This document shows positions 4,150-61,433 of a DNA stretch of 64,000 bases, piece by piece; the first letter of the stretch is position 1; each line of letters begins with the position of its first letter. Below the pieces are notes generated by a model. It saw only the letters and a list, made by a program, of their open reading frames with translations, ran no database searches and had not been told where the DNA came from. This DNA comes from an uncultured Clostridia bacterium (GTDB taxonomy: Bacteria > Bacillota > Clostridia > Christensenellales > UBA1242). A program made the translations under genes and the position numbers. The stretch covers positions 291,453 to 355,452 of the forward strand of contig CALWJY010000015.1 of NCBI GenBank assembly GCA_944381135.1. Direction: 5' to 3'.

Positions 4150-4377
4150 ATGAACAAATCTAATTATGGTTCTATGAAAGGTGTGATTAAGATTGAATTG
4201 ATTGAAAAGTTCATGAAAGAAAAACATCTATCCAAACAAGAATTTGCGTATAGATGTAAAATTTCTTTGAAAGATTTGCAAAAAGTTTGCGACGAAGTTT
4301 CTCACTTCGAGCCAATTTGCCTTTTGAAAATTGCAAGAACAATAGGTGTGGAATTTTCTGACTTGGTCAATTCTTAA
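4150..4377 (+). CDS. small HTH-like (Cro/XRE-like) protein
   Basis: The ATG at 4150 follows AAAGAGG. 'HLSKQEFAYRCKISLKDLQKV' is HTH-like. The track ORF starts at a TTG at 4120, but that position lies next to the -10 element and is unlikely to be translated. Confidence 0.55.
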   Translation: MNKSNYGSMKGVIKIELIEKFMKEKHLSKQEFAYRCKISLKDLQKVCDEVSHFEPICLLKIARTIGVEFSDLVNS

Positions 4378-4400
4378 ATCTTTGACTTCTTAAAGTCATT

Positions 4401-8196: not shown

Positions 8197-8215
8197 CACT
8201 CCTCCATTTGTCATC

Positions 8216-8245
8216 ATTTTAACTTTTTGCCACAATTTTTGTCAA
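8216..8245 (-). promoter_or_regulatory. sigma-70-type promoter of the glycerol-3-P dehydrogenase operon
   Basis: On the minus strand, TTGACA (8245..8240) is followed by an 18-nt spacer and TAAAAT (8221..8216). Confidence 0.5.
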
Positions 8246-8354
8246 ACATAATCAAGAGTTTGTCAATTTTTGGTCAATTTCACATTTTTGTCTGTGTCAT
8301 TTCCATACTTTGCAACAGAATTTTGAGACTTAAAATAAAAATTTGTCAATTTGT

Positions 8355-8383
8355 TTTTCAAAGGAGTTTTTTTGTGCTAAAAT
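8355..8383 (+). promoter_or_regulatory. extended -10 promoter of glpK
   Basis: TGCTAAAAT lies at 8375-8383, with a weak -35 TTTTCA at 8355-8360. Confidence 0.4.
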
Positions 8384-8445
8384 ATGCTTAAAGAATAAAA
8401 ACACTTTTGGTTTGCAAGTTTGAAATTTTTGATTTGGAGAAGCCT

Positions 8446-21106: not shown

Positions 21107-21216
21107 AAACACCTCCGTTTTCTTGTCCATATTATACTTCATTTTGGGTGTGGTGTCAATACCCTTTCCCAAAAAATAATTCATTTTTTACAATATTTTG
21201 CCAAATTTTCTCAATC

Positions 21217-35970: not shown

Positions 35971-38900
35971 CTATTGTTTTGACATATATTTCATCTTTCT
36001 TTCGCGTTGTTTTCTGACGATGATGAAGATTATCAAAATCAGAAGCAAAACAGCAACAATTGCGATGATTATCCAAAGCCACCAAATTGATGCTGGAGGT
36101 GATGCCCAAATTGCATAGAGCACAAGTCCATCTTCAAAGTTTACTGTGATTACATCACCATCAAAGAATGCAACATCTCCGTTTGGTGAATATGCCCAAC
36201 CAAGGAAAATCATGTTTCCATTGGTGAACATATCTCCTCGCAACGTCAGTGTTTGATTGTATTGAACATTTCTCTGGATGCTTTCAGAACCATTGTTTGG
36301 ATTGAATGTCACAGTGACAATGCTTTCTTTTGCTGTTGCTGTCAAGGTGAATGGTTCGGACAGAACGCTGAAAATGTATCCTCTTGGTTGGTCTGAATTT
36401 TCAATGGCTGTTTCCGAATCGTTCAAAAGCCAACCATCAAATCTATATCCGACCATTGTTGTGACGCTGAGGCTAAGTTGTTTGGTGTATTTTGCAGTGA
36501 ATGTATAGGACTGCGTTTCTGGATTAAACTCTCCACCCTCAATGTCTGTCTGGCTTATCAATCCTTCAACTGTGATTGCCTCAATTCCTGTGCCAAATTT
36601 CACTTCAAAGGTGACAGTGTTCAAATTGTAATATAGCCTGATGACTGTCGAGCCATCGCCAACAACTTCATATGTTTCAAACTCGGAACTGTCATAGGTA
36701 TAGCCCACAAAAGTTTGAACATATTGCAAGAAATCAATTTCGCTTTCTGTTGTGCCGGTGTATGTCTCCGGTTCTCCAAACAGAACATAATTTCCTGTTT
36801 CAATCACCTCAAGATAGTGTTCAACTGTATAATCTGCCTCGCCAACATCAGAGATGAGTTCAATTTCATATTTCTCTGTGCCGTCAATGACAAACGATGC
36901 CTCAAGTTCGGACAATCTTGTGTCTGCATCAATTTGCCATTCAACAAACCTATAGCCCGGCATGAGTGTTGCTGAAAGGTTGACAGTTGCACCAAATTGA
37001 TATGTGCCTGCACCAACCACACTTTCAACTTGGTCTTCATTGAATGTGATTTCAACATCAACCAACTGACGAGTGTAGAAGAATCTGATGACTGTCCTTG
37101 CAGTTGAATTGCTTCCTGCAATATAGGCATTGTCAGTTGAATCAACACCATCAATCAGCACATCATAGTGGTCAAAGTTGAACCCGAAGAACACTGATTC
37201 ATCAAACTCGACAAAAATGTTGGAGATGTTTGTGACATAGTCTTCAATAATTTCTTCCTCAGTGAATGGATGATGTGTTGTCCCTGTCAAATCTCTTGAA
37301 AGAGCAATTGAATATTCTTCGCTGTCAAGGTTCTGCCTATAGTATTCCAATCTGAATGGGCTTTCTTCTGCTGTGATTGTGGCATTAATTGCAAGGTCTT
37401 CATCTTCCATTGTGCGTGTCAGTGTTGTTCCAATCACGCCCGTTGAAATTGGCAAATCATCAATTGTATAACCGCCAAATGAGAAACCTGCCATATATTC
37501 AAATGTCAATTCAAAGGTTTGACCATAAGCAACATTCCAAGTGTATTCTGTGGATGTTTGAGGTTCGGTTCCGTCAACAGTAAGCAGAACGCTTTCGCCA
37601 ACAAGTCCACGCATTTCATCAACGAATGTGAGTGTGACTATGTGCATGTTTCTGTTGAAATAGATGTAAACAACTGTTGAGCCATCGCCGGCAATTGTCA
37701 CTTCCTGTCCATCAATTGAAGACATAAATGCTTCAAACCCTGTGATTACGGCTGTGTTGAAGCCGATGTCTTCTCTTGTCAACACCTGACCGGTGAAGCC
37801 TTGCAATGTGATTGGATCTGAATATGGAGCATAGTCAACATCCAAATCTTCACCCAAAGATTCATTTTGAATCATATAGTAAACCATGAAGTCAACTTCA
37901 AGTGCTTCTGGCGAAAGATTTAATGTGACATCACTTGCTGGCATGTTGAAAACAATCGTCACAGTTGTTGAACCGTCTTCCTCTTCAACTGTGGAAATTG
38001 AGAACTCAACCTCGGTGCCGAGCGTTCCGTCAGATGGATTTGTCATCAATGTGATGTTTTCTTCAGCAAGCAAAAATCCAACTCTGACTGTGAATGTCAA
38101 GGACACTTCTTCGCCAAACATGTGCGCGCCCTCACTGTCCGTCTCAATGAATGCGTTTTCGTTTTCATATGAGATTGAAAGTGAATAGGAATTTCTTGTG
38201 TATGTCATTATTACAACCGTTGAGCCGTCACCCATGATTGTGTTGATACCATTTTGATAGGTTATGCTTCCAAAAGTGAAGCCTGCCAAATTTTGAGCAT
38301 AGGTTGCCTCAACAATGTTTCTTATGATTGCATCTGAAAGTTGTTGCTCGGTTGTGCCTGTTTGTCCAAATGTGATTTCTGCCTCTTCATTGAACGACCC
38401 ATCAAGATTTTGCAAGAACACTTCAATTGTATATGGAGTGTCGGTGCGTGGCGTTGCGTCCGCATACAAAACAACATCTTCCGTGCCAATTTCAAGTGTG
38501 AATCCACCTTCCACTTCAGTGAGTGGTGTGTCAAATGTTGGAGACTGATAGCCCTCATTTGCCGTCAAACTCAAGTTGACAACATCGCCAAATCTGATCG
38601 TGTAGGTCTTGGAATTTTCTGTCTCTTCCTGAAGTGTGAAAGTGTCATAGAGCGATGAGGTTATGCTTGCGTCAGCAATTCTGTCGGTCGTGTTGATTGT
38701 GACTTCATAGAACCTGCGAGCAAAATAAACATCAATGACATTCTCATCTGTTGCAGTGACAAACAAGAAGCTGTCTTGGCTGTGTTGCAAATCATATTCA
38801 TAGCCCTCTTCAGCAAGTTGTGTTTCAAAGTCAGAGTCTTGCAAGAAGAGTTCATATGCTCTGTCGCCTGTGAGATATCTTTGAATTTCAAATTCAAACT

Positions 38901-41900: not shown

Positions 41901-44900
41901 ATTCCGTTGTCACAACTTGGTCGGTTATGCCAGAAACTGCTTCAATTGTCTCAACTGTTTCATATTGATTTGTTGAGAAAGTTTGAAGTCTATAAACAAC
42001 ATTGAAGAATGCCTCGCCTGCCTCAGTCAAGATGTTGATGTTGACATCGTCTGAAATTGTCAGACTGACTGAATCTTCCTCTGTTGTTTCATCTCCAATT
42101 TCAAAGCCGTGGAAAATGTATCCACCCTTAAGAGCCACACGGTCTCCTGTGCTGTTTGCAATTGAAACTGTCACTTGGTTGCCATAGTAAACATAAATTG
42201 TGTTTTCATAGTTCACAGGGCTTCCGTCAACAGTGATTTGCAGTCTGTTTGTTTGAATGCCCGCGCCACCATTGATTGTGAGGTTATAGACAATTGCTTC
42301 CCAAACAGCATAGAGATTGACTTGTGGTGTGTATTGATTCAGCACATATGTTGCGCCGTCCAGATATGCAATGTTTGTACCGCTTGGAGTTGTTGACCAG
42401 CCAACAAACCTAAAGCCTGGATTTTCAAAGGTGTTTGATCTGAGAGTGATGTTTTCGCGATATCTTGGTGCTGGAGATTGTGTCTCTGTCAAATCGGTTT
42501 CACCAAAATTGCTGTGGAAAATGATTTCATATTCTCTTGCCGTGCTTGAAAGTGTGACTGTCACATTTCTTGCTGGCATTTCAAAGGTGTTGTCACTCGT
42601 AATTGTCACATCACTGCTTGAGAACGAACCAACAATGTATCCTTCATCTGTCACACTGCTTGAAAGTGAAATTGTTGCTTCATAACGAACGGAATAATTC
42701 CCGTTTCCAGAATTATAGATATATGTGACATCTGTTCCGACATTTGTGGCAGTTGCTGTTGCGGTCACTCCGTCTTCTGTACGCAAAGTCAAAGAATAAT
42801 AACTTCTGTTATATCTCACTTCAACAACCGTCTGCCCATTTGCATTGATTGTTGTGCTTGTGATGCTTCCAGAATAGATGAAACCATCAATTGTCTGTGG
42901 AATTGTTCCACCAAGTGCCTGTGCAACAACACTTTCGTTGACCACGCTGTCTGTCAAGCCTGAGGCTGGAACATCTTGTCTCAACTCTGTCCTTTGTTCA
43001 TAGTCTGAAGTTGAAAGCCTCTCAAACATAAATCTGATTGTATAGGAGGTTTCAGTTGCTTGCCAATGAGCATAAAGTGTGGTGTTGGAGGTGATTGAAA
43101 CTGTGTCAGACGGCAAAACTTGTGTTCCGTTTGTCCTCTGTGTGAACCAACCAACAAATTTATAGCCCTGTCTTGTTGGCGAAGCATCTTCAAGAGAAAC
43201 TTGAGTGTTGTCCGTTGTTGTGTAGGCATCGGCATAGGTGCTGTCATAATATACATAAAGTGAAGAATATGTGCTTATGACTGAACCTGTTGTGCCTGCA
43301 CTGACATTTGTGTCAAGTGTGAGTGTATATCTGTTTGGATCGTATGTCACATTGACTTCTTGATTTGAAATATATTCCCAAGTGCCAGAAACTGATGCTT
43401 GACGTGGTGTGTATCCGACAACTTGTGGACAATCAACACGATATGTTTGACCATATGTCACATCAATTATTTGAGATTCTGCAACTGAACTTCCGTCAGC
43501 TTTGATGAAGTTGACAGTAAGTCTGAACGATTGTGCTTGCCAGCGTGCAGTGAGTGTGGCATTTCCATATCTTCCTGTCAACGAAACTGAAGATGGGTCT
43601 GCAAATTCTTGTCCAGATGACCAAGAGCCCCCTGCAGTTGTCACGCGCCAAGAAATGAAGTCGTATCCTCTTCTTGTGATTGTTGGAAGCGTTCCAACAC
43701 TTTCAATTGTGTATGAAAGTGTGTAGTTTCCGCTTGCATCGGCAGTCATTCCGTCAATTGTTCCGCCACCACCAATAAGAGTCAGTATGTATGGAATTGG
43801 TGTCCATTGTGCATAAAGTGTGACATCTCTGTCAAAGCGATATGGCGTGAAAGAATATTCGTCACGATAGATTGTGCCATCTTCGCCATTTGGGTCTTCA
43901 GACCAACCAGCAAAGTCATAGCCTGTGCGGGTGAACGCGGTTTCTGGCAATTGAAGGTTTTGACCATAAATGGTCTCAATTGTTGCCATTTCGCCACTTC
44001 CACCATTTGCGTTGAAAGTCAATTGATGTCTGTTCGGCGTCCATTGTGCATAGAGGTGGAATTCTCCATCCGCTTCAGAAGCCAATCTTGAAACAGAAGT
44101 TCCGGAAGAATAGTCACGTCCGCTTCCGTCCTCTTCTGTGTTCCAGCCTGAGAATGTATAGCCTGTGAGTGTGAAGAGAATTGCACTATCTGTGTTGGAC
44201 TTGATTTGGAATGTTTCAGTGTAAAGATGTGTCTCGCTGGATGTTTGGTCAGACATTCCACTTTCAACAAAGTCATAGTTGCTGTGATAAATCAAGTCAT
44301 AGGAATTTTCGTCCCAAACTGCATAAACTGTCACGGTTTCATCATCAATCGTTGTCAAGTTGTATGCATACCAATTGCCGTTGAATTCATAAATTCCTCT
44401 GCCTGTGATTTCGTCAAGACTGTCAACATGTATGATGTCTTGAGCGGTTGAGTTTGATGTCAATCCCCAACCAGAATATGTGAAGCCGGTGAGAGTGTAG
44501 TTTCCAAGTGCGCTTGCAAGCAAGGTTGGCTCTCCGTCATATCTGATGCCTGTGATGTTTTCAATTGCCGTTGTTTGACTTCCACCATTTGTGCTGAAAG
44601 TGATTTGATAGGAGATTGCATCCCAAACTGCATAGAGGTCAACATTTGTTTGATATGCCCTTGTGTTTGAAAAGATGTATCTCTCGCCATTTTCATATTC
44701 CACTGTGCTGTCGTTTTCAGTTGACCAACCAAGGAAGTTATATCCCGTTCTTGTGAATGTGTTTCTTCTGAGGGTGGTTTCTTGGTTGTATTGAATTGTC
44801 TGCGACTGTGTTGTGTCTGCGCCCTCAACATTTCTGTGGAATGTGAGTGTGATGTCTCTTGGAGCAGCAATAGCCGTGATGGAAATGTCTTCCGTTTCTG

Positions 44901-53900: not shown

Positions 53901-56900
53901 ATCCCGTTCTGACAGGTGTTTGGACCTGCGTGAGTTCTTCATCATCGGAAGTGTTCATGAAGAAACCAACATTATATCTCAAATAAATCATCGTGTCGCC
54001 TGGTGTTGTGGCGTCAGTTTGGCTGAGTGTGATTTGCAAATCTTGTGACTGCCATCTGACATAAAGCGTCAAGTTGTCTGCATAGTTCCAAACACCATTT
54101 TGAAGATAAGTGCTGACCTGTTGGATGTTTCCGTTTGCGTCAATGACAAGAGTTCCGTCTGCATCTTCCCAACCTGCAGCAGTATATCCCGCTCTTGTTG
54201 GGTTTGTGATTTGTCCAACAAAACTTGATGTCTGTCCAAAATATGCTGTCAAACTTTCAGTACCTGCCACATCAGCATCAGATTGCTCCAATGTGATTGT
54301 GTATGGCAAACTTTCCCATCTTGCAACAAGTGTGATGACTCCTGCGCCGGAAAGTGTCCAATTTTCGTTCAAATTTCCGCTTGCGTCAATGATTTGTTGG
54401 TTGTTTTGTTCATAATACCAACCCAAGAATCTATATCCTGTTGCATTTGCAATTGGTTGAATGACATCTCCAACAGGCTGATATGGGAAGTTTGTTCCGC
54501 TTCTTTCAGCATAGATGTTTTGAGTGCCATATTCAACATATATATAATAGTTGCCATTGTCCTCTGTCACATTTGTGGAAACTGAGGCATTGACATGTGT
54601 TCCAAAATCAAGTGCAACTTGCACAATGTTTGGCTCCCAATGCGCTGTCAAGGTGACATTTCCATGCATTCCAAGAAGAGAGTGTCCAACAGAATAGTCG
54701 GTGCCAGATGTCCAATTTCCACCAGCAGTTGTCACCGTCCAACCAACAAGAGTGTGTCCTAATTTTGTTGCATTTGGAAGAGTGAGCGTGGAAGAGGTTA
54801 TGTCATAAGTCAGTGGGTTTGAAACTGTGCCCTCAAAAGCACCTCCATCCAAAACAAATGTAACTTGATATGGAACTTTCTGCCAAACAGCATAGAAAAC
54901 CTGTGCGTTGAAACTGTCATAAATTGTTTCCGGAGTGATGATTTCAATTCTATTTGCAGAAGTGCCAAAATCAAGATATGTTGCCCCATTTTCTTCCACA
55001 ACAGTGTATGAAATGCCAGATTCAATGACAATTCCCGAAGAAGAATATGCCCAACCCAAGAATGTATATCCCGTGAATGTGACATCTGTTTGGTTGACAA
55101 CCATTTCTCCATCCACCATGTTCACACCAGGAAGTGCGCCAATTGCTTGGCCAAATGTCACTTCATTTGTGGCAAAAGAAATGTTGTCTTCAGTGCTTGT
55201 TTGAATTGACCAGCCATTGCCGTTCACAAATTCTGCACCACTTTGCCCAAGTGAAAGAGTGACACCAATGCGGTCTGGCGTATAGTGTGCATGAAGTGTG
55301 ACATCGCCGTCATAAATCCAAGCGCCGTTTGAGATGTATCCCGAAACATTTTCAAGGAACATTCCGTTTGCACTTGTGATTTGCACTCCACCATTTTCTT
55401 GTGTGAACCAACCATCAAAAGTGTAGCCCTGTCTGATTGCAAGAGGGTATGGGTCCCCTTGCGCACCTGTGATTGCACTTGAAGAGTCAATCACCCCATT
55501 TGTGCGGGTTTTATAGAAATATTCATCATCAAATTGGGCATAAATTGGTGTGACAATGTTGACATGAGGGTTTTCGCCTGCAATCACCTCATCACCTGCA
55601 TCCAAATCAACTTGATAGTTCTTAGGCGACCAAACGGCATTCAAAGTTGTGGAATTTTCGGAATATGTCCACCCGTTTTCGTCAGCAATCACGCCAGTTG
55701 AATTGATGAGAATTTGAGTCACAGCATTGTCTGTTGTTTCCCATCCGCCAAAGTTATATCCCGTTCTCTGTGCGGTTATGTTTGTGATTTGATTTGTTCC
55801 TGACCTTCCGTCTTGAGACAAACCAAGATACATCTCATCCGTGCCAAATCTGACATAAATTGTGCCATTAAAGGCTTCATTTTCAGAGCCATCCACAAGA
55901 AAAGTTGGAGTTGTCGAACCATCACCTTGGTTTAAATCTAACTGAACTTCAACCATCTTTCCTTCCCAATGTGCATAAAGGGTTGTTGGGGATGTTGTGA
56001 ATGTCAAAAATCCAGAATTGATTGTGCCATTCTCGTCAATCACTTGTCGGTTATCTTCTGTATAGTAGCCCAAGAAGTTATATCCCGTTCTTGTTGGCAC
56101 AAAACCATATTGTGTAATTGATGTGAGCGGCGTGCTGACTTGTCCACCCTCATAGTGAAGGAAGAAGCCGGTGTTGTATTGCAAGAAGATTTCTCCAATG
56201 TTGTTTGGTGAATTATATCCCGCATCCAAACTGATTGTATAAACAGAAGGTGTCCAATGTGCATAGATTGTTGCAGAAACAAAGGAATTGTTTGAACCCC
56301 AAACAAAATTTGCATTGGTTGTGTGGAAGAGGTCGTTTTCATCAACTTGAGTTCCGCCTGTTTCAGCAGTAAACCAACCAACAAAATCATAGCCCGTGCG
56401 TGAAATTGTTGCTGAAGTTGGAAGTGTGCCAAGGGCGGTGTTGTAGGTCAAAGTTTTTGTTGCAGTGTCTCCAGAACCTGTCCAACTTGAGTTTGCCGCA
56501 ATTGTGCCCTCATTGGCATCCAAAGTCAAAGCATATTCATTTGGTGTCCAAAGAGCATACAAAGTGGCGTCACCCGTGAAGAAAGTAAGGAAACCTGAAT
56601 TTATCAATCCGTCCTCGTCAATAATTTGAGTCCCAACGCCAGTTTTGGTGTTGTAATAGCCACCAAATGTATACCCTGTCATGGTTGGAATTGCGATTTG
56701 TGTTGCAGTTGATGCGGATCCGCTTGTCAATGTCCAGCGTGTTTCATATTGCAAATAAATTCTGTTTGTCCCGACAGTGTCCGCAGAAACGCCTGTTGAG
56801 GCTGTTTGACTTGCATATCTTGCGCTGTCCAAAGTGATTTCATATTCTTGAGGTGTCCAGCGTGCGTAGATTGTTGCAGAAACAAAAGAACCACTGCTCC

Positions 56901-59900
56901 ACACAAAGTCGGTGTTATCTTCATTGAAAACAGTTGTGGAAGAAACTTGAACTGTTCCGCCCGGTGCATCGGTAAACCATCCGGCAAAATCATAGCCCGT
57001 GCGCGAAATTGTTGCTGAAGTTGGAAGCGTGCCAAGTTGAGCATTGTATGCCAAATTTTTGGTTGCTGTTGCGCCCGAACCTGTCCAGCCCGAGTTTGCA
57101 GCAATTGTTCCGCCACTTCCATCTAATGTCAATGTGTAAGAATTTGCAGTCCAATGTGCATAGAGTGTGTCATTTGAAGTTGTGTATGTCAAAAGCCCAG
57201 AATTGATTGTGCCATTTGCAGCAACAATTTGAGTTCCCGTGCCTGCCTTTCCGGTGTAATATCCTTGGAAAGTGTAGCCCGTCATGGTTGGACTTGTGAT
57301 TCGTGTTGCACTGGTTGTGGAACCACTTGACAAAGCCCAACGCGTGTTATATTGCAAATATAGCGTTGGTGTGCCCGAAGATGTTGCAGGCGTTCCTGTT
57401 GACGCGTCTGCAGATGCATATCGACTGTTGTCCAAAGTGATTGTGTATTCCACCGGAGTCCAATAGGCATACAAAGTTGTGTTGCTTGTGACAAATGTGT
57501 TGCTTCCAACAATTTCTCCATTTGCATTTATGATTTGGTTGCCAGAAGCTTGCTCTCCAACACCAACCTTTGTTTCATAATATCCGCCAAATGCATAACC
57601 CGCTTTGGTTGGAACTTCAATTCTTGTGATGTCGGCAGTTGCGCCTGCATTGCTGAAGAACCCAACGCCATATTGTAAATATATCACTGACGTGCCTGCG
57701 TCATCCGCATTCGTTCCTGTTGCATCAGAAGAACTTGAATAGAGTTTGCTGTCCAAATTGATGGTAAGCGTATCTGCAGTCCATTGTGCATAGAGTGTCA
57801 CCGTTGCACCTTGTGTGCTTGCCAAATTTTGCACACTTTGCCCTGCAGTGTAAGATTGTCCAGTTCCATCTTGTTCTGTGTTCCAACCTGCAAAGTTATA
57901 TCCCGGATTGGTGAAACCATTTGTTCTCAAAGCTTGTGCAACATCATAGGTGAAAGTTTGACTTGCTGTTGTTCCAGAACCACCATTTGGATGAAATACC
58001 ACATTATATGTGATTGGTGTCCAATCAGAATAGAGTGTGTGGTCGCTTGCTGTTGAAACTGTTGAAGTTGCCTGAATTCTTGTGTCGAATGTTGGCTCCA
58101 AAAACCAACCTTCAAAGGTGTAGCCCGTGCGTGTTGGAGTTGGCAAATTTGCGTAATCTCCATCATATGTGACAGACAAGTTTCCAATGGCATAATCTGC
58201 CTTAATGTCACTCACTTTCTGAATTGAAAGATTTTTATAAGATAAGACATCTCCAACTTGCCAATTATTTGTATAGAACACAAAAGACCTATAGTTGTTT
58301 TCATTTGTTGTTGCCGTGTATGTGTGCGTCACTGTTTGCCAATCTGTTGTCACATTAACCGTTCTTGTGCCGCCCATCTCATGCCCAAAATATCCGATTT
58401 GAATGTTCCTTGATGCCTTAACATCAATGGACCAAGTGTATGTCTCACCAATTTCCAATTCTATGGTTGTTCCAGCATGTGGACCATTGTTGGAAGCAGT
58501 CGTCACTTCCCATTCATAAATCAAAACATTGTCTTCAATGTAAGTCGTATAAGTTCCAGTTGAACCTGATTGATTTCGTGCATATGGATAAACCGCATAG
58601 TTTGTTGAGTCAAAATTGACAACATAGGTGTTTGCTGACCAATGTGCAAAAAGTGTAAAATCTGTTGCTCTATATTTCAGATATCCAGAATTGATTGTTC
58701 CGTTTGCGCTGACAACTTGGTCTCCACCACTTGCCTCAGTGTAATATCCTTGGAAGGTGTAGCCCTCTCTATATGGAACATCCACAGATGTGATTGCTTG
58801 TGTTGCACTTGAATCGGCATACCAGCCTGTGTTATATTTCAAATAAATTTGATGTGGTGTAATTCTGAAATTGCCAACCGAAAAATTGAGAGTGATGTTG
58901 TCTGTCACATAGCCACCATTCAAAATCAAATAGACAACATCATAGTTTCCCGAATTGAAACTTATTGTTGCAGTTCCAGAACTTGCCGTACCGGTGTGAG
59001 ATGTTTCATCATATGGAAAATATCCAATCGCCAAGTCATTATTTTGATTGTTGCTTGCTGCCGGAGTGGTGAAAAGCACTTGATATGCAAAACCTTGATA
59101 ACTTCCCGCAGACGAAAGTGCGTAGTCATCTGGGAAATTATAATCAAAACTTATTGTATAGTTGGTGTTTCTTTCAACATAAATTGGCACACCAATAACT
59201 TCCCAGCCGCCACTTGTTGCCAAAGCCACAGTGCTTGTGTTTGTGGAAGAATCATATGTAGCCTCAAACCTGTCTCCATATTGATATCCAGTCCAATTTG
59301 AAAGGTCACTGTCTATTCCCGGCGTTCCAGAATTTCCATCCATTGTCACTGTGTAGATGTTGGCTGACCACTGCGCCGTCAAAATCACAGTTGCGCTTGC
59401 GCTGTTCCCATACATCCCTTCAACCGTTTTTCCGGCTTGATATGTTGTGCCAGATGTCCAATTTCCTCCCGCTGTCGTCACGCGCCAACCTGTGAAATTA
59501 TATCCCGTGCGCGTTGGTGTTGGAAGTGCCGTTATAACATTGTTGACCCCCGAAATTGACGAATCCGCCTCAATGTTATAATATCTGACTGCATTGCCTG
59601 TTCCGCCATACACAGTTCCACCATTTGGATTGAAAGTGAGGCTGTATGTGACAGGGTTCCAATGAGCATAAATTGAACTGTTGCCTGCAGTTGTGTAGGT
59701 TGTGCCTGTGTTGACTTGCGTTCCGCCAGTCGCTAATGTGAACCATCCAGTAAACTCATATCCTTGGCGAATTACACTTGGAAGTGTTCCATAGGTTGAA
59801 TTGTAGGTGACTGTCTTTGTTGCAGAATTACCTGTTCCTGTCCAACCCGATGTGCTGGTGATTGAACCACTGTTTCCATATGCCGTAAGTGTGTATCGAT

Positions 59901-61275
59901 TTGCTGTCCAATGTGCCCACAACTCCAAATCGCCGTCATGTTGATATGTGTTGGTTGATGACCAATAGTCTGTGTCCGGAATGCAAATTCCATTTGAACC
60001 ATAAACTTGAGTTCCTCCACTTGCTGCTGTATACCACCCAGCGAAATTATATCCTGTTCGCGTTGGCGTCCAACCATCTATACCATAATAATTTCCTGTT
60101 CCATATTTTAATGGAGACAATGTTTGAGAATCTGGAGTTCCACCATTTCCGTGCAAGGTTAGGTCATATTCCTTTCCATCCCATTGTGCTGTCAATGTGG
60201 CAGTTCCGTATTTTTCGCTTACTGATGTGCCAGCAGAAAATGTTGCACCAGAAGTCCAACTTCCTCCCGCTGTCGTCACGCGCCAACCTGTGAAATTATA
60301 TCCTGTGCGCGTTGGCGTTGGCAAAGTGTTGGTTGACTCTGGAGTGTAAGAAATTGATGTTGGACTCACACTTCCACCATTTGCATTCAATGTCAAGGTG
60401 TATCTGCTTGGCGACCAAATGCAGAACACTGCGCCATTGTCTCCAGAAACGGTTCCACCATTTCCATCTGGACCTGTTGACAAAACGCAAGAATATCCAT
60501 TTCTTGTGAGTGTTGATGTGGTTGGCGTTCCAGAAACTCTCACAGATGTTCGAGCCGTGATGTCAAGTCTGTTTAAGGCGCTTCTTGTTGGATAGTAGGC
60601 GTTATAGTAAACATATGTATATCCGCTTGCTCTGCTTGAAGCAGAAACAGGATAAAGATTGCTGTTGCTTGAGTTGACTGAAGTGCCAACATTGTAAATC
60701 CAACCGCCTGAGGTTTGGAAATCCCACGCACCGGAGAAGTTCAAAATTGTTCCACTTCCAACACCCGAAGAACCAAAAATTCTGTTGTCATCATCCGAAG
60801 TGAAAAAACGAATGTCTTGTGCATATCTTTGAATTGTGGCTGCAGCAACATTGATGACATTATCTTCCGTTCCTCCAACAATTGTTGTTGCATTCGGTCC
60901 AAACACATTTCTTCCTGTTGTCACACTCGACACAGTTGATGAAGCCCTTTGCAAGAAAACGCAGTCAATCAATTGAACGCTAGTGGCAGAACCCGTGAAA
61001 GCAGACGTTGTGTTGAAAATGCAGTTTCGAAAGATGTATGAGTTTCCACTTGTCAATGCTCGTGCAGATGTATAATATTCGTTGTCATAATCGTAAGCCG
61101 CGTTGGCAGAAACAGGAAGAGAGTTTTCATCCTCGCCATCTTCAATGGCCTCCTCCTGAGAATAAGAATTTGAGAAGTATTGCGTCATTGCCGTCATGCC
61201 AATTCCAAAAGATGTGGCAAGCACGCAAGCGAATGCCAAAATGGAAAACAAAAACTTATGTTTAATCACGTTCAT
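35971..61275 (-). CDS. giant (~8,430 aa) secreted, C-terminally membrane-anchored repeat protein rich in InlB-B / Listeria-Bacteroides (Flg_new-type) repeats; putative adhesin or glycan-binding surface protein
   Basis: The reading frame is uninterrupted from 35971 to 61368. I trimmed the start to the ATG at 61275, which follows GGAGG (the minus strand reads GATGGAGGTTCTC-ATG) and begins a signal-peptide-like 'MNVIKHKFLFSILAFACVLATSFGIG'. By eye I count about 50 cores of the form '(T/S)R(T/Q)GY.F.GW(F/Y)T...GG.Q' ending in 'LYA(H/Q)W'. There are also about 14 MucBP-like modules ending in 'GDGST(V/I)..(Y/F)Y.R..Y'. The C-terminus is 'IWWLWIIIAIVAVLLLILIIFIIV-RKQRERKMKYMSKQ'. Confidence 0.85.
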   Translation of the reverse strand: MNVIKHKFLFSILAFACVLATSFGIGMTAMTQYFSNSYSQEEAIEDGEDENSLPVSANAAYDYDNEYYTSARALTSGNSYIFRNCIFNTTSAFTGSATSVQLIDCVFLQRASSTVSSVTTGRNVFGPNATTIVGGTEDNVINVAAATIQRYAQDIRFFTSDDDNRIFGSSGVGSGTILNFSGAWDFQTSGGWIYNVGTSVNSSNSNLYPVSASSRASGYTYVYYNAYYPTRSALNRLDITARTSVRVSGTPTTSTLTRNGYSCVLSTGPDGNGGTVSGDNGAVFCIWSPSRYTLTLNANGGSVSPTSISYTPESTNTLPTPTRTGYNFTGWRVTTAGGSWTSGATFSAGTSVSEKYGTATLTAQWDGKEYDLTLHGNGGTPDSQTLSPLKYGTGNYYGIDGWTPTRTGYNFAGWYTAASGGTQVYGSNGICIPDTDYWSSTNTYQHDGDLELWAHWTANRYTLTAYGNSGSITSTSGWTGTGNSATKTVTYNSTYGTLPSVIRQGYEFTGWFTLATGGTQVNTGTTYTTAGNSSIYAHWNPVTYSLTFNPNGGTVYGGTGNAVRYYNIEADSSISGVNNVITALPTPTRTGYNFTGWRVTTAGGNWTSGTTYQAGKTVEGMYGNSASATVILTAQWSANIYTVTMDGNSGTPGIDSDLSNWTGYQYGDRFEATYDSSTNTSTVALATSGGWEVIGVPIYVERNTNYTISFDYNFPDDYALSSAGSYQGFAYQVLFTTPAASNNQNNDLAIGYFPYDETSHTGTASSGTATISFNSGNYDVVYLILNGGYVTDNITLNFSVGNFRITPHQIYLKYNTGWYADSSATQAITSVDVPYREGYTFQGYYTEASGGDQVVSANGTINSGYLKYRATDFTLFAHWSANTYVVNFDSTNYAVYPYARNQSGSTGTYTTYIEDNVLIYEWEVTTASNNGPHAGTTIELEIGETYTWSIDVKASRNIQIGYFGHEMGGTRTVNVTTDWQTVTHTYTATTNENNYRSFVFYTNNWQVGDVLSYKNLSIQKVSDIKADYAIGNLSVTYDGDYANLPTPTRTGYTFEGWFLEPTFDTRIQATSTVSTASDHTLYSDWTPITYNVVFHPNGGSGTTASQTFTYDVAQALRTNGFTNPGYNFAGWNTEQDGTGQSYTAGQSVQNLASTQGATVTLYAQWTADTLTINLDSKLYSSSSDATGTNADDAGTSVIYLQYGVGFFSNAGATADITRIEVPTKAGYAFGGYYETKVGVGEQASGNQIINANGEIVGSNTFVTSNTTLYAYWTPVEYTITLDNSRYASADASTGTPATSSGTPTLYLQYNTRWALSSGSTTSATRITSPTMTGYTFQGYYTGKAGTGTQIVAANGTINSGLLTYTTSNDTLYAHWTANSYTLTLDGSGGTIAANSGWTGSGATATKNLAYNAQLGTLPTSATISRTGYDFAGWFTDAPGGTVQVSSTTVFNEDNTDFVWSSGSFVSATIYARWTPQEYEITLDSARYASQTASTGVSADTVGTNRIYLQYETRWTLTSGSASTATQIAIPTMTGYTFGGYYNTKTGVGTQIIDEDGLINSGFLTFFTGDATLYALWTPNEYALTLDANEGTIAANSSWTGSGDTATKTLTYNTALGTLPTSATISRTGYDFVGWFTAETGGTQVDENDLFHTTNANFVWGSNNSFVSATIYAHWTPSVYTISLDAGYNSPNNIGEIFLQYNTGFFLHYEGGQVSTPLTSITQYGFVPTRTGYNFLGYYTEDNRQVIDENGTINSGFLTFTTSPTTLYAHWEGKMVEVQLDLNQGDGSTTPTFLVDGSENEAFNGTIYVRFGTDEMYLGLSQDGRSGTNQITNITAQRTGYNFGGWETTDNAVTQILINSTGVIADENGWTYSENSTTLNAVWSPKNYQVDLDAGDEVIAGENPHVNIVTPIYAQFDDEYFYKTRTNGVIDSSSAITGAQGDPYPLAIRQGYTFDGWFTQENGGVQITSANGMFLENVSGYISNGAWIYDGDVTLHAHYTPDRIGVTLSLGQSGAEFVNGNGWSIQTSTEDNISFATNEVTFGQAIGALPGVNMVDGEMVVNQTDVTFTGYTFLGWAYSSSGIVIESGISYTVVEENGATYLDFGTSANRIEIITPETIYDSFNAQVFYAVWQKVPYQVTFVLDGGAFEGTVSNPLTYDITSSTLTLPNATKLGHTLVGWTVTTAGGNWTSGTDYSVGHSLLGMHGNVTLTAHWEPNIVQVALDFGTHVNASVSTNVTEDNGNYYIYVEYGTQNIYAERSGTNFPYQPVGDVIQPIANATGYRFLGWYYEQNNQQIIDASGNLNENWTLSGAGVITLVARWESLPYTITLEQSDADVAGTESLTAYFGQTSSFVGQITNPTRAGYTAAGWEDADGTLVIDANGNIQQVSTYLQNGVWNYADNLTLYVRWQSQDLQITLSQTDATTPGDTMIYLRYNVGFFMNTSDDEELTQVQTPVRTGYAFQGYFTQTNGQGRQIIDRNGNILLESDGILTFTAVNTSIFAHWTPNRYDITLHNNYGSDATTQIQVEFDSNNFFDSTNIQIPNVTTSRDGYTFMGYFTSSEGGVQVIDREGLLVSSATEGDVVIAENGIWVYAGGDELFAHWEATTYEITYVANGGQFASNVETTVEYTTEDDNIVLYGYSQISLPGYTLRWTSEATNSGDRIATTWVNGDFAPSTAFTSSNGLFGNVTLTAQWTPITTDLTFNLDGGDGATSHTVTFDQNVSNIQLPDDAPSGTSAVAWKTGYILEGFFTTSGADGEKIFNADGSPVSIAVNGWLASGTGSNMIWKNTTRPDTDGQNAQVTLYAHWTAATYAVNYSLGTGIDRISISGTGVDGQDGEKLTNGTVQVEYGSTITVIATARVGYTISQWTAGTASNPTTPVGSTSNENRTATYTFTFNGSLFGVADGGVLDAGSIYYVSSSATANMVGYTIQYRVQGEDGTFGPVNTLTGTYQALTDSVVQLSFAQQEIQDLITESPAQYGYLNAFEFDGVKFYTAQNQSKDEYDDVTSFTVQGNGGLIIELYYRYRTFEIEYNMTSGALVNGAPEVVSYNYYTLITLLESDDVMRIGYTLSGWQVSQAVGNWTSTTFTQGQQLRNMYGTVTLTPTWTQKTFDISYDLNDGTWVHQPTEISYQLTSNPITLPTIDDVEKTGYTFAGWTLNYVFDTWHTGTIDAEGNFVLDASHSSSVYTNEISLRQGITYTLSANGVWKIFSADGTFIQTVSTLEYAPTQDQVAFILFENGLSTAERGNFTVTASGLATTIPSGSVGDVRFEAIYSAQRIAVTLDGNRGTGSTDVTIAPSTLVNNTVYIEFDSTNIFASNNALDTTPILPLATRGGYRFLGWWNGETQVTDAQGNLLANWTNADEGTWTAHWTPYTYRITLSGNSGTLSNVTGLSGLTSLGGNVYQATFDQDGTFTASLTRQGYTFIGWALEPNNSDATTGITQGEITKSSSAVFTSAGTTLLNLTEVENRSVPIYAQWEADYVTVTLDVNQGTGSSVPSISNSTIYVKSDALYSTAVTSLDSMSTTGLLTPSRVGYRFLGWFTEADGGDQVTNDTRLLVEDVTYDQAGNGSKTLYAHWEALSRTVTYHYNFGGSSTTFVDNVTFDATYTVLTTAETGNWTVTGWTFVNWRVGLSGNTTYEAGQQFRFTFDNMDLYAVWSENSYTITYDPNDANYQGTAQVISGMQTTVEISYTTAVDTNARFTREGYTFAGWYLTPDCNDVDLVGTGSLVSGLCTGVEGDDEITIYAKWTPEAVRYQVHHYVQTIDAARDADVSNSLSDLSNFTLHHTDSKSAESESTITITNEVVNISGFTYGNQFAYTTTNTTWATSGQVIVQADGSLEIYLFYTRNSYDMTVTIGIGVDSVSASALDEATSESRTLTGSNSVVDDETVTTFADIFYGEVVSLVADLSDGYHDANFVGNVTISSSNTFSMPTNDVTITASAEAGQVAYHVAVYLEGVTEDQFTPHTILDFQATVDTEVTISSSVFALAGYEFDSGNENNDLTKIITGDGNTTFSIYYIRSTFELTINANGGTYSGQTPISQRYGTTTLVSDPIWTGHTFLGWSQPENGTFEDATNTYTFGTGNATLVAQWQENVYAITLNANDSTGSTRATINPESAVVYITFNHSTFWTDWSGATLPNNTTGEPISPTATRAGYHFEGWFTSDGTQIIDDEGNLVANANGYVQNGAWVLAEDVELYAHWTNATYRVTFDANVTTSYERDDPSIEYQFDDVTFDEAYGTLPTATRTGYDFGGWFLTASCEADEEVTEETIVTTPNAHTLFAKWTAEPLGISYRLTQIDIPTTPTSTVTHSEDVTIVLNAYTGYTVPNAITVQIGATTVASGSAYTYVVASDGSYGTITIKQGYINEDITIIATAERETNSVIFNLQHINVQSGANFVQSGQNYTAVLERAYGYHLPAESGIVVTVTTEEGVRTLTERDVTITIEGDEITIEIVGQHSDTDIVINGTVTISASGTAMTPTVSFDVNEYDGETPDEMVVTFDQAYGTLPTLSMEGYNFVGWFLSDVALDGALPTDQITSTSVVGIETDHTLHAYWTSKQVTVNIRNNSGGNYEGTVSGQLSTGGNTFTTGIFRTGDTIILSNNPTMQNGQAVYTFSRWTVENGTGSITSRGDGTYAYQITSEDTDTAGNTLTFKAVYTVSGNIVVITDDGQTLTGGTASFVGGSSTWDYTGPSQTQSMTASEYAGYEFVGWSTSANGTIVSENNPYQITMGTNGNFTYYARFDSIVYTITYHHQGGAWASGFNPQTTYITSTGATLPNSANITRTGYDFAGWWTEAENGTEVTTIAANEIGNREFFAHWTAREYVVLLSTHGGEDVDTDDGTNILTVTYDEATYVPSTTRVGYDFAGWSTSESSISSTRDINESALGEGETLSEYLIRTNASGGIYRFIRTDEMVEYYVFNLSSTANANVTIHAIWTPVQVTYHIQYWLESLEVDEDGNAIYKLDTETTDGNLTTTHSTTGTAYTEDVVSIPDVSYYGFTFNANDDRNIRSATVAGDGNTVVRLYFTRNSYTLNFTKPSLGVESISIIVNGDALDTATGTDNETTASIKFNQSVTISATISAGYKFASFTESVNTSVRLAEEEAGTHTHNFNILRSTTYTVNVEAQERDYVVNFLYENLAGDGYETRGVQSVTRTALVDQTIRYADLADLIDDETHLLTGFNYDNMNDITISADVSENVIYVHYSRNTYTVTLNTTSRITSLALQGIDPDEDTTNRYTLKFEQRVTLVATVIAGYQFDDWTCTEMTASQIITATSSSGDPSTGETTTATLTMPARNLTISASANPIPSPFYLEYYLQNLDGSTYPSAYHERVRLEGYTDTAVNLQDYDFNEYEGFTYDDMTMTNNGIIFADGSTIVRLYYTRDDVTVNIAFTEGIESVTVTATNYSFSQTFQEDGSFNLLYEGNVTLTYTLEMVDGVSGYSFTGWDIDGSVTTTGSVTAETEDISITAIAAPRDITLTFHRNVEGADTTQSQTIQYNQETTLRRNTFTRTGYNFLGWSTENDSTVEYENGERYIFSNTRAYQTNVDLYAVWDAISYQITFSTNGGSQTTAIENITGIRYDGEPTLLASALGNYTLTGFTYSGWGLTSNSTAQDIIHVDSLDEITGRGIYEFNGNWYAYNLTTIDDETVTVYAVWDENSYDLIYHSNYDFVESGMSDQTSSETHLYTETFQIKSNTDSAILFTLTGYTFSGWNTEEDGSGRDYSSGTSVSRLASEADGEFHLYAQWTPNRHQLTFNANGGSGEMATIETIYGQNLQLPETAFTRTGYDFAGWSEDPNGEDGTIYRDEYSFTPYRFDRDVTLYAQWTPIPYILTLIGGGGTIDGMTADASGNYTLSYTIESVGTLPTITRRGYDFISWRVTTAGGSWSSGQEFADPSSVSLTGRYGNATLTARWQAQSFRLTVNFIKADGSSVAESQIIDVTYGQTYRVDCPQVVGYTPRQASVSGTWEYISNQEVNVTYDPNRYTLTLDTNVSAGTTGSVISTYSSLYVYYDSTYADAYTTTDNTQVSLEDASPTRQGYKFVGWFTQRTNGTQVLPSDTVSITSNTTLYAHWQATETSYTIRFMFERLSTSDYEQRTELRQDVPASGLTDSVVNESVVAQALGGTIPQTIDGFIYSGSITSTTINANGQTVVEVRYNRSYYSLTLRTEDGVTATATATNVGTDVTYIYNSGNGNYSVRYEATISLSSSVTDEGYIVGSFSSSDVTITSDNTFEMPARNVTVTLSSTAREYEIIFHSNFGETDLTETQSPAPRYRENITLRSNTFENPGFRFVGWSTTPSGTNIAYLDGATYVLNQYTPQVNLYAVWEAIVYNLTINGGAGIQTNRLQITVDGSPVNYENTIYVYYGNQVTVSIANSTGDRVALKGGYIFHGFEIGDETTEEDSVSLTISDDVNINILTEAGEAFFNVVYRLQTFSTNQYETVETIEAVSGITDQVVTTEYLGSLDLLREYEGFAFGSLNDGTTNETAIIRYAEDPEDYTTIYVFYLRQHYGLTLDTSVTGLQSFTYQAVPNESRVTTSSGQLRVYFESALNLTVRTRSGYEFAGFRATITDPTTQTSITVNATVEDGNYVFYDNDMTEVFRISVDESGQMTLDSMPAYDLIITPIIDAQTYPVTYHKYAGTDLAEYKDEVTYNEPYTVLFNNSPQLNWTREGYEFRGWALSQTAADNGEVFITSAITYEHYTFTYGLDLWAVWAAEDADYRFEYYFENTNGEFVIDDRFTQYFSGTPGTEVSITILEMEGYVYDEGHEGEIVSGDINANGNLALRIYYTRAYYVLTINYETNEIQSVEVASDGLLAGSVSQTDGRLIAQIKHGFQVDLSYEYAPGYTNAVINGVTTLDADSFNMTMSNLTISLTTSPRDYYVIFTGGDGGILGDGSGEQTYVQAFNYQQTLPLTQNRFTKLGYEFAGWQIGDELYADEQSFTFSYTEDVQAVATWVARDDTSFTITYLITDINGDLSEEVVGTANLVGTTDEEITQSDAEEGFNQVFGINLAGYEFDSFQTTGTILPDGTGTAQAIFHLKAFTVSFSVSGEQEDVTGIDGVSMTYQTSENGEQSFTLGEQTSVSVEYSSSMTISISVTEGYEFDQILITGEGISLTVDQLTDGTYTYTMPSADINIHIQTVAERHQIIYHRNFTEDDMVTTSQMVAYGSAYTLEGNFSITGWQLLGWSTSDDDTVEFAVGAEMDPYLLSTDTEYYAVWEANDYVVTYNGNGAEGSIGDTTGVYDQLVELASAEEDQANFNLVGHKFTSWSLDGQTPATLVTDEIITEAGQQDLLSYVQNVAGSGLYEYQGTIYAFNLATGSETDRTVTIYAVWEEISYTVVLRDEENPSHVYEFETSFTYNETITLPTYAELQAEGWADPPGYDFSGWTYTDDEGQVQETLAGVDEQIQLSRLTATDGKEVELFARWTMGSIEVDVRVLLQDADGNWTTNVRDVPDPDNEFEFEIQRYLTGDRAYELFLQDSDFETQLAEEGYEYDLQHSQDSFLFVTATDENVIDVYFARRFYEVTINTTDRIADASITSSLYDTFTLQEETENSKTYTIRFGDVVNLSLTANEGYQSPTFDTPLTEVEGGFTLEIGTEDVVLYADATPRTDTPYTIEVFLQNLDGSFNEEAEITFGQTGTTEQQLSDAIIRNIVEATYAQNLAGFTFGSITYQNGINTIMGDGSTVVIMTYTRNSYSLSISYENENAFIETDSEGAHMFGEEVSLTFTVRVGFLLAEENITLMTNPSDGTLGTEVEFSISTVEEEDGSTTVTIVFNMPASDVTLNLSPEALEVDFMVYYMIQNESLGEDLDVDYAPYSDPITLQGFTGQVLTREDIGFNTAVITGFEAFMSSIDGQEVTIAGDGSTVVYIYFNRNMHIVTLTFVDEMRGLVGESVLLTVDGTEPQTSTEYTWNVAYGQTFELTFEYMAGFSFGGYTIDDLPISTGVIGTTLTRTMEDEDLAINATITAEESPFRLEYYRQNLDSEEYSIALSRDLTGTTHHPFTEEEIIEDYVTNISNIFVEFDESVFFGFNFDHYDVLIDGVDSTDNAYIAGSNSTARTVIRFFYTRQLVDVEITFNEDQVESVVGAGTYQFGATVNLSATLMPGYRFVEWQIDADTRLSELEASFVIDGTEKYEIELISDVGEADYTVEHYLEVIETGNYVLFGEPETYTGTTESEIDFLQYVQTFVGYTYDSSEFETYEVVGDGSTVIRLYYNLNTVTFEVKFGTGIEAITVEGLISQTDIEGGEFNPETQSYTFTAKYTKQLSLSVTTMVGYRFDGWLLNDSETAIENSDQPRGYIFSVLSEPFTLTATAKESIVTVTFNPNNGSESIQRNVQYNQTLTLRGDMFTNGNMIFLGWAYSPNGDVAFFDGDVITVNFEDGLVLYAIWASPPASIWWLWIIIAIVAVLLLILIIFIIVRKQRERKMKYMSKQ
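36016..36087 (-). other. C-terminal transmembrane anchor of the giant protein, followed by a 14-aa basic cytoplasmic tail
   Basis: A 24-residue hydrophobic helix is followed by RKQRERKMKYMSKQ-stop. No LPXTG-type motif lies upstream of it. Confidence 0.8.
56251..57453 (-). repeat. tandem duplication of a ~600-bp (two-module, ~200-aa) unit inside the giant gene
   Basis: ORF aa ~1306-1505 and ~1507-1706 align residue for residue ('EY.ITLD..RYAS..ASTG...YLQY.TRW.L.SGS..(S/T)AT.I..PTMTGYTF.GYY..K.G.GTQI' then 'TIAANS.WTGSG.TATK.L.YN..LGTLPTSATISRTGYDF.GWFT'). At the DNA level, cgtgcgtgaaattgttgctgaagttggaagtgtgccaag (~56396) matches cgtgcgcgaaattgttgctgaagttggaagcgtgccaag (~56998). Confidence 0.8.
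58213..58626 (-). other. non-repeat jelly-roll / CBM-like insert 2 in the giant protein
   Basis: ORF aa ~915-1052: 'GPHAGTTIELEIGETYTWSIDVKASRNIQIGYFGHEMGG..VNVTTDWQTVTHTYTAT..NYRSFVFYTNNWQVGDVLSYKNLSIQKV'. The pattern (a ...TY..S..vKAs... strand followed by a ..W..v...f.a strand) is typical of CBM4/9/22-like beta-sandwiches. Confidence 0.45.
58855..59301 (-). other. non-repeat jelly-roll / CBM-like insert 1 in the giant protein
   Basis: ORF aa ~690-838: 'GGWEVIGVPIYVERNTNYTISFDYNFPDDYALSSAGSYQGFAYQVLF...GTATISFNSGNYDVVYLILNGGYVTDNITLNFSVGNFRITP'. The segment contains no GY.F.GW core. Confidence 0.4.
61183..61275 (-). other. N-terminal signal peptide / signal anchor of the giant protein
   Basis: A basic n-region (MNVIKHK) precedes the hydrophobic core FLFSILAFACVLATSFGIG. 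Confidence 0.7.
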
Positions 61276-61404
61276 GAGAACCTCCATCAATTTCTTTACG
61301 CCAAGCAAAATTTCATTTAATTTTCTGCCTTCAATTTCAATCAACCAATTTTCGTTTACAAAAGTCAAACATCAAGCCCTTGAAGACAGAATTCTGTCTA
61401 TATT

Positions 61405-61433
61405 ATTTTAATATATTAAGCAAAAAAAGTCAA
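61405..61433 (-). promoter_or_regulatory. sigma-70-type promoter of the giant gene
   Basis: The minus strand reads TTGACT-ttttttgcttaatatat-TAAAAT, with a 17-nt spacer. It lies about 130 nt upstream of the trimmed start. Confidence 0.5.

Follow-up and report, generated by a model that had tools for sequence, protein, structure and literature searches.

The locus described here raises the question of whether a bacterial gene of 25.3 kb is real and, if so, what its product does. It lies in a stretch of DNA of 64,000 nucleotides from an uncultured Clostridia bacterium (GenBank assembly GCA_944381135.1, contig CALWJY010000015.1, positions 291,453–355,452; hereafter the window, from whose first letter all positions are counted), and is predicted to encode a membrane-anchored repeat protein of 8,434 aa, which we refer to as the giant protein. 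The gene is intact and under purifying selection, and represents in this genome a family that is inherited vertically and occupies a fixed locus. As to function, we consider it probable (at roughly 0.7) that the product is a surface fibril mediating attachment through its distal end.

The original prediction saw here a single uninterrupted minus-strand open reading frame (ORF) with a good Shine-Dalgarno sequence and ATG start, constituting a real gene and not a run of fused ORFs, and all of this is borne out. The ORF listing of the window gives one minus-strand frame at 35971–61368, of 8,465 aa when counted from a TTG codon; from the ATG at 61275, the coding sequence (35971–61275, minus strand) translates into 8,434 aa with zero internal stops and one terminal stop, a protein of ~923 kDa with an isoelectric point (pI) of ~4.1. 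A GGAGG Shine-Dalgarno sequence (61281–61285, minus strand), read directly from the DNA, is situated 5 nt ahead of the ATG. Because 8,434 codons are free of stops in DNA of ~43% guanine-plus-cytosine (GC) content, a chance origin is excluded, and the 8,434-aa product was also predicted independently on public contigs of two samples. One of these, ENA contig ONAT22-1_SAMEA6814455 scaffold_122 (169.8 kb), matches the window at 100% identity and carries the 8,434-aa gene call; the same call is made on scaffold_592 of a second sample, SAMEA6814450, which is identical across the 9.8 kb that are comparable. Contigs of two other projects are collinear over ~13 kb at 98.7–99.8% identity with zero indels, and the substitutions within the species are mostly synonymous, with a ratio of nonsynonymous to synonymous polymorphism (pN/pS) of 0.05–0.22.

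Tandem Repeats Finder (TRF) reports no tandem DNA repeats in the gene, and the best internal DNA repeats are 77–85% identical and 101–216 nt long, the top one having 85% identity over 101 nt. Repeat collapse is unlikely, since the modules are old duplicates that are divergent in DNA and can be resolved by short reads. That the long frame arose by repeat mis-assembly, or belongs to a decaying pseudogene whose function has been lost, is effectively refuted, and we accord it a negligible probability. Two short-read assemblies break in the gene near 58,000–58,200, and in one related metagenome-assembled genome (MAG) the gene is split in two; however, the split is a 10-N scaffold gap, the repeats are too divergent for collapse, the full-length call is identical in the second sample, strains differ by no indel and have a pN/pS of ~0.2, and orthologues are intact in 19 species. 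Apparently small or pseudogenised versions of the orthologue, at L004 (6,082 + 1,662 aa) and L006 (1,932 + 912 aa), were rejected as scaffold-gap or frameshift artefacts. We note that the two short-read assemblies are independent and end their contigs at nearly the same spot (~58,000–58,200), and that nucleotides 1–307 of L002 do not align to the window, which suggests a strain-variable or hard-to-assemble segment at this position.

The breadth of the family emerges from comparisons with other uncultured genomes. The protein databases seem to lack very long proteins, as the giant protein itself was never returned, and a search with its C-terminal 1,000 aa gave no match longer than 1,721 aa; giant proteins appear to be under-represented in these databases, and 'no homologue' results are therefore weaker than they look. 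The matches to the C-terminal 1,000 aa are fragments at 28–43% identity with the same anchor, several of which have a ...KxMSKQ end. In the NCBI MAG GCA_964405555.1 the C-terminal fragment is encoded directly upstream of a DapB-like gene and tmk and is preceded by a 6,082-aa call, with nothing but a scaffold gap of 10 N, inside a module, between the two calls. When the C-terminal 1,000 aa were used as a single sequence a genome scan found no loci, and an alignment-based scan of GTDB species representatives then succeeded, finding 20 loci with near full-length matches. At 19 of the 20 the frame is open through the whole 10-kb upstream flank (>4,300 aa where the full flank is present), and the twentieth is the gapped contig of GCA_964405555.1. 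The orthologue is syntenic in at least 19 species representatives, the gene order being dut-ZIP-giant-DapB-like-tmk, with ZIP and dut conserved upstream and the DapB-like gene and tmk downstream, and a more distant relative has uvrC at the position of the giant gene instead.

This synteny on both sides upholds the placement of the gene among core genes and not on an island, and tmk, comEC, holA and dut are all confirmed as neighbours in the window. An island or horizontally transferred origin was rejected, as the higher GC content of the gene (~43% vs ~35%) tracks its Thr/Gly-rich and Lys-poor composition. The related records are of uncultured Clostridia MAGs from the gut of chicken, deer, mouse and human, one of them labelled Candidatus Caccovivens sp., and their titles agree with the low-GC, gut-type lineage that had been proposed; the best named homologue of a neighbour gene is also from Candidatus Caccovivens. 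Across these species the identity to the window is 79–89% for the DapB-like protein, 54–75% for tmk, 26–43% for the C-terminal 1,000 aa of the giant protein and 26–33% for its N-terminal tip. The presentation of the giant protein as exceptional in size was overstated: calls for orthologues at the same locus are of 10,225/10,228 aa in three assemblies (one from JGI) and of 13,840/13,845 aa in an ENA assembly and an NCBI MAG, and gut Clostridia proteins of 10,000–30,000 aa with repeats of this kind are found in the literature. The orthologue calls span about 7,750 to 13,845 aa, these lengths being those of indexed gene calls whose sequences were compared at their N- and C-terminal parts. In the human-gut genome UMGS1447 the tip (L098) and the C-terminus (L012) are 37.25 kb apart on what is apparently the same 258,787-bp contig under two accessions, which corresponds to ~12,400 aa if the gene is continuous.

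The arrangement of the protein is as well conserved as its locus. In the last ~3,500 aa the order of the modules (classes A, B and C, described below; TM, transmembrane helix) is essentially the same in all ~19 species, BCBCBC-AAAAAAA-BC-AA-BC-A-BC-A-BC-AAA-BCBCBCBCBC-A-TM, and all of the N-termini examined have the tip followed by a long Flg_new run. Because this order is conserved across species and the paralogous modules inside the protein are only 13–25% identical, the array predates the radiation of the clade. The variation in copy number for which a comparison of orthologues had been proposed did not appear, either among strains over ~13 kb or across species in the C-terminal part, where the order is fixed.

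What the array consists of was determined by a Pfam scan of four overlapping tiles of the protein, which gave 31 Flg_new stretches, four Flg_new_2, one MucBP and no other family, with TIGR02543 added by an NCBIfam scan; hidden Markov models (HMMs) were then built from the protein's own repeats, and regions were assigned to them competitively. The resulting map has 83 modules following the tip (residues 1–278), comprising 54 of class A, 15 of class B and 14 of class C. Class A is made up of 53 Flg_new-type modules and the canonical MucBP module, and 44 of the 54 match Pfam Flg_new individually at E<=0.01; in a sequence search they also match the InlB B-repeat chains 1m9s and 2y5p of the PDB. 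Ten of the 14 class C modules match Flg_new_2, and class B has 15 copies of ~80 aa, almost every one of which has a C module directly after it. The N-terminal stalk (residues 279–2784; 52924–60441, minus strand) has 25 Flg_new/InlB-B-repeat-type modules, covered by 12 Pfam stretches (E=2.9e-98), and the mixed stalk (residues 2812–8393; 36097–52842, minus strand) has 28 Flg_new-type, 15 B and 14 C (Flg_new_2) modules together with the one MucBP. The latter (residues ~5916–5980; 43336–43530, minus strand) scores 24.5 bits against PF06458, for which the cut-off is 23, and E=1.3e-5 when searched alone. Six short gaps between modules, at residues 696–760, 917–968, 3191–3264, 4289–4465, 4550–4646 and 4897–4942, have no family match, nor do the jelly-roll inserts of the original prediction correspond to any family, and the Pfam and NCBIfam scans show no recognisable catalytic domain. 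Much of what the original prediction had said of the protein therefore stands, namely that it is almost entirely modular, that its modules include those of Flg_new and Flg_new_2 identity and that it carries no catalytic motif, and the counts given there (about 50 and about 14) come close; the Pfam scan that it proposed recovered Flg_new, Flg_new_2 and a single MucBP, but no MucBP array.

The departure from that description lies in class B, which had been taken for about 14 MucBP-like modules. The B modules are a real and distinct class, with the consensus Y.v.Y..q...G.T....GF.fd....I..DGsTvv..YY.R, and MucBP was rejected as their identity, since all 15 copies fail to match Pfam MucBP at a threshold as loose as E<=1, a profile built from them retrieved no relevant PDB sequence, and hhalign comparison of B with the genuine MucBP module of the same protein gave only 2.5% probability. 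An AlphaFold2 (AF2) model of one B-C pair, built on an alignment of 27 B-C pairs from the giant protein and its relatives, is all-beta, with a predicted local distance difference test score (pLDDT) of 93.9 and a predicted template-modelling score (pTM) of 0.82. A Foldseek search with this model leads to stalk or repeat domains, all from adhesins and pilins of Gram-positive bacteria (Cpa, SdrD, SpaC, YwfG, Mub), with TM-scores <=0.48 that are too low for a fold name to be given to module B.

The two ends of the protein have the features anticipated of a membrane-anchored product with a signal-like N-terminus, so far as these can be recognised in the sequence. Residues 1 to ~30 (61186–61275, minus strand) have the form of a signal peptide, with a K/H-rich n-region, a hydrophobic core and a conserved SAFGIG; the N-terminus reads MNVIKHKFLFSILAFACVLATSFGIG and is conserved among orthologous N-termini. 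A lipoprotein signal was rejected, as Cys17 is outside any lipobox and is missing in some orthologues. The signal-like segment is followed by the putative distal tip domain (residues ~31–278; 60442–61185, minus strand), which is beta-rich and ~250 aa in length, with the conserved motifs NSYxFxNCIFN and SGAWDF. A word-indexed protein search with residues 1–300 gave zero matches, exhaustive HMMER searching of 1.84 billion representative proteins gave one match only (P0015, a fragment with 33% identity), and a scan for the pattern in DNA found relatives of the tip at four loci, with 26–27% identity. At the other end is a predicted transmembrane anchor, a hydrophobic helix of 24 residues (residues 8397–8420, IWWLWIIIAIVAVLLLILIIFIIV; 36016–36087, minus strand) with a WWxW-hydrophobic stretch that is kept in most orthologue tails, and then a putative cytoplasmic tail that is basic and conserved at its end (RKQRERKMKYMSKQ; 35974–36015, minus strand). 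Anchoring by sortase as an LPXTG protein was rejected; although there is a hydrophobic segment with a basic tail, the last 400 aa have no LPXTG-like motif, and the regular expression [LIVS]Px[TSAG]G has zero matches after residue 8000. We also note that an end of the form K-x-M-S-K-Q is common to many orthologues (the tails of L008–L018 and L026), and that the anchor has a sub-threshold match to NCBIfam GG_III-CTERM (17.8 bits against a cut-off of 22); the two together hint at a dedicated sorting or retention signal.

The composition of the giant protein is extreme, with 14.4% Thr, 0.1% Cys, a pI of 4.08 at ~923 kDa, and only 0.8% Lys as against 8.5% in ten other proteins of the window. The depletion is a trait of this lineage, since Lys makes up 1.3% to 6.0% of the orthologues, and one possible explanation is resistance to trypsin-like proteases. 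Of the 14 residues at the C-terminal end of the giant protein, four are Lys.

These features suggest a simple plan for the protein in the cell. The N-terminal signal would export it by a Sec-type route, and in a type-I topology the C-terminal helix would hold it in the cytoplasmic membrane with the conserved basic tail in the cytoplasm. The ~8,360 extracellular residues would then fold as ~83 small beta modules to make a long stalk that is acidic and rich in Thr. A module typically adds 3–4 nm in tandem Ig-like and beta-grasp stalks, by which the stalk would be roughly 0.3 micrometres in length. It would present the orphan tip of ~250 aa far from the cell, and it is by this tip, possibly together with modules of the stalk, that the cell would attach to an external surface. 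We favour attachment because the plan of anchor, stalk and tip matches that of the fibrillar adhesins, in which Flg_new is a stalk domain and the adhesive domain often lies concealed in an unannotated N-terminal region far from the anchor (10.1101/2021.12.07.471604).

Several points weigh against this interpretation. The family scans reveal no recognisable adhesive, lectin or carbohydrate-binding module (CBM) domain anywhere in the protein, the tip has no match to Pfam or any known family, and a single-sequence AF2 model of the tip is unusable (pLDDT 31.6). The module order is fixed and there is no variation in copy number, unlike many adhesin stalks, and this fixed order could point to a structural role and not an adhesive one. 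The cleavage of the signal peptide and the membrane topology were judged by eye from the sequence, and the taxonomic placement follows the submitter labels of related MAGs and one named protein match, not a phylogeny.

What the tip might bind can be approached from the habitat of the family. All of the relatives come from animal or human gut samples, and Flg_new proteins are enriched in animal-gut microbes and have been read as adhesin-like (PMC9723798); with one genuine MucBP module, and with the mannose-binding surface protein YwfG and a Mub repeat among the Foldseek neighbours, the fibril could be a host-directed adhesin that retains the bacterium in the gut by binding mucus, glycans or epithelium. 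We regard this as possible but tentative, as the 15 'MucBP-like' modules fail to match MucBP, the family scans found no lectin or CBM, the tip is an orphan, and a ligand specific to the host is made less likely by the sharing of one module order among the bacteria of birds, ruminants, mice and humans. The surface could alternatively be that of another bacterium, one supplying metabolites to a genome-reduced, dependent lineage. Relatives are labelled Candidatus Caccovivens, which corresponds to UBA11517 of GTDB in the family UBA1242 and has a type genome of 1.1 Mb with 34% GC (PMC8035907). UBA1242 genomes are without most biosynthesis and part of glycolysis, and dependence on partner cells has been proposed from them (PMC12306168), which favours such a tether, as does the persistence of a 25–41 kb gene in at least 19 species although it would take up ~2–4% of such a genome. 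The suggestion of West-Roberts et al. that adhesion to other cells is often the role of giant repeat proteins (10.1101/2023.11.21.568195) also speaks for it. We nonetheless judge a partner-cell tether rather improbable, given that the reduced genome of the window's own organism is extrapolated from its relatives, that the dependence of UBA1242 is itself a genomic prediction, and that the more distant relative is without the gene at this locus.

A bolder form of this idea, which we think unlikely, is that the fibril of ~1 MDa is a cell-to-cell attachment organelle of genome-reduced UBA1242 Clostridia, in which the fixed order of modules would make a tether of defined length and the tip would recognise the surface of the partner; it would then be a Firmicute counterpart of the giant proteins proposed to tether the candidate phyla radiation (CPR), DPANN and Omnitrophota to their hosts. 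The strict conservation of module order and length, with no variation in repeat number, can also be read without any adhesion, as can the extreme composition (Thr 14.4%, pI 4.08, and Lys at 0.8% vs 8.5% in the neighbours) and the lack of a recognisable adhesive domain: many copies of the protein might form a non-adhesive coat or spacer, an acidic brush resistant to proteases and standing in for, or adding to, an S-layer or capsule. This we find doubtful, and equally so the protection of the cell that such a brush would afford against proteases, bile, phages or immune factors. A distinct tip is conserved in every N-terminus examined (one orthologue fragment and four loci), Lys depletion is not common to all of the orthologues (1.3% to 6.0%), and a protein of ~920 kDa would be costly in the amounts needed to form a coat, all of which argue against it.

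Attachment through the distal end of a fibril thus remains the preferred interpretation, and the closest known systems are the fibrillar adhesins and fibrillar-adhesin-like (FA-like) proteins with Flg_new stalks described by Monzon, Bateman and colleagues (10.1101/2021.12.07.471604). The giant protein shares with them a predicted signal peptide, an unannotated distal N-terminus, a tandem Flg_new stalk, a Thr-rich bias and a C-terminal anchor; it is, however, about ten-fold longer than typical members and anchored by a transmembrane helix and not by LPXTG, and its modules are ancient and positionally conserved where theirs are recent duplicates, with no known adhesive domain. Of the features that define the FA-like class, a stalk of tandem known domains and a cell-surface anchor can both be read from its sequence, and where the distal adhesive domain is expected there is the conserved orphan tip of ~250 aa, without a family match.

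The kind of protein is already known, because gut Clostridia giants with Listeria-Bacteroides repeats have been reported: West-Roberts et al. (2023) described Clostridia proteins of 10,000–30,000 aa from mammalian gut metagenomes, for which surface binding was suggested (10.1101/2023.11.21.568195). These share the class, the habitat and the dominant repeat family of the giant protein, whose orthologues reach 13,845 aa; they are treated there only briefly, with neither loci nor taxa nor architecture given, and at 8,434 aa the giant protein itself is below their size range. It is unlike the Omnitrophota-type giants of the same authors (>30,000 aa, with many transmembrane regions and SecA-DEAD-like domains), having 8,434 aa, one transmembrane helix and repeat families only. 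What is new is a specific, syntenic and vertically inherited family in Caccovivens/UBA1242, in which the positions of the modules are conserved and both the tip and an 80-aa module are orphans.

Further surface proteins were also compared. The A modules match by sequence the Listeria monocytogenes InlB B-repeat (2Y5P, 1M9S), the structural prototype of Pfam Flg_new; however, there are ~53 modules of B-repeat type against one in InlB, and neither a leucine-rich repeat (LRR) internalin domain nor GW modules. An internalin was rejected, as no Pfam LRR is present and the NCBIfam internalin matches score 39–44 bits against cut-offs of 1,050–1,600 and are confined to the B-repeat region. The Mub/MucBP proteins of Lactobacillus (Mub-R5, 3I57) and Lactococcus YwfG resemble the giant protein in their long arrays of two-domain repeats and in its one true MucBP, and they are neighbours of the B-C model (YwfG at TM 0.45–0.48; Mub 3i57 at E=0.011), but the B modules fail both Pfam and hhalign, LPXTG is lacking and the TM-scores are too low for a fold assignment; a MucBP/Mub repeat protein was therefore rejected, with a single module passing PF06458. 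Periscope proteins and the classic giant adhesins (Ebh, SiiE, SasG-type) are likewise very long tandem-module proteins that project a distal end. The giant protein differs from these in having other module families and neither near-identical tandem repeats nor strain variation in length over the compared regions, and a periscope protein was rejected on the lack of TRF arrays and of strain indels over ~13 kb.

If the taxonomic inference holds, the family is the largest single investment (~2–4% of coding capacity) in genomes shorn of most biosynthesis. The report on UBA1242 names only 'hypothetical membrane-bound proteins' and does not mention the giant protein (PMC12306168), and the family is a concrete, conserved and easily recognised candidate for the means by which these uncultured gut bacteria, which may depend on partners, attach to their surroundings. 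Its tip, a defined orphan domain of ~250 aa, could be expressed for binding assays, and the positionally conserved modules, at 26–43% identity, form a natural data set on selection for the length and order of a stalk. Members of UBA1242 have been negatively associated with broiler body weight (PMC13155120), which lends some applied interest to their colonisation factors.

Putative signals for expression flank the gene on both sides. The promoter anticipated upstream is represented by a TTGACT-17 nt-TAAAAT element found by consensus scan (61405–61433, minus strand), ~130 nt upstream of the ATG. By itself this shows no significant enrichment in the AT-rich spacer in that scan, but a AATTAAATTGAC...TATAAT promoter block is kept upstream of the L096 and L098 orthologues, the tips of which are only ~27% identical in protein sequence. 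Between the promoter-like -10 box and the ribosome-binding site of the giant gene there is a 16-bp sequence, AGACAGAATTCTGTCT (61384–61399), that forms a perfect palindrome. It is identical in two further strains and missing from the orthologous leaders of L096 and L098, and may be an operator or an RNA hairpin. Downstream, the expected terminator corresponds to an intrinsic-terminator-like hairpin of 17 bp with a T-run (35846–35885, minus strand), 86 nt past the stop codon; the scan detected two terminator-like sites where shuffles predict 0.1.

Immediately downstream of the giant gene, and always its neighbour, is the DapB-like gene (34640–35779, minus strand), which encodes a DAP_DH_C domain and is unusually conserved relative to tmk and the giant protein; its product has a tail rich in Cys, His and Asp (CCDDDCDCHHDH), which suggests metal binding. 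Elsewhere in the window an ORF of 955 aa (18317–21184, minus strand) matches no Pfam family and resembles SMC only weakly, in the manner of a coiled coil. A glycerol-use cluster at 5561–9918, with glpK, a type-2 glycerol-3-phosphate oxidase-like gene and a pyridine-nucleotide-disulfide oxidoreductase, is linked to the region in relatives too (L004 19665–24491; L005 9755–14306), and is of note in a lineage reported to be without upper glycolysis. Lastly, one relative has a Spo0A gene near the locus (L085 6906–7140), which fits the unexpected retention of sporulation genes reported for UBA1242.

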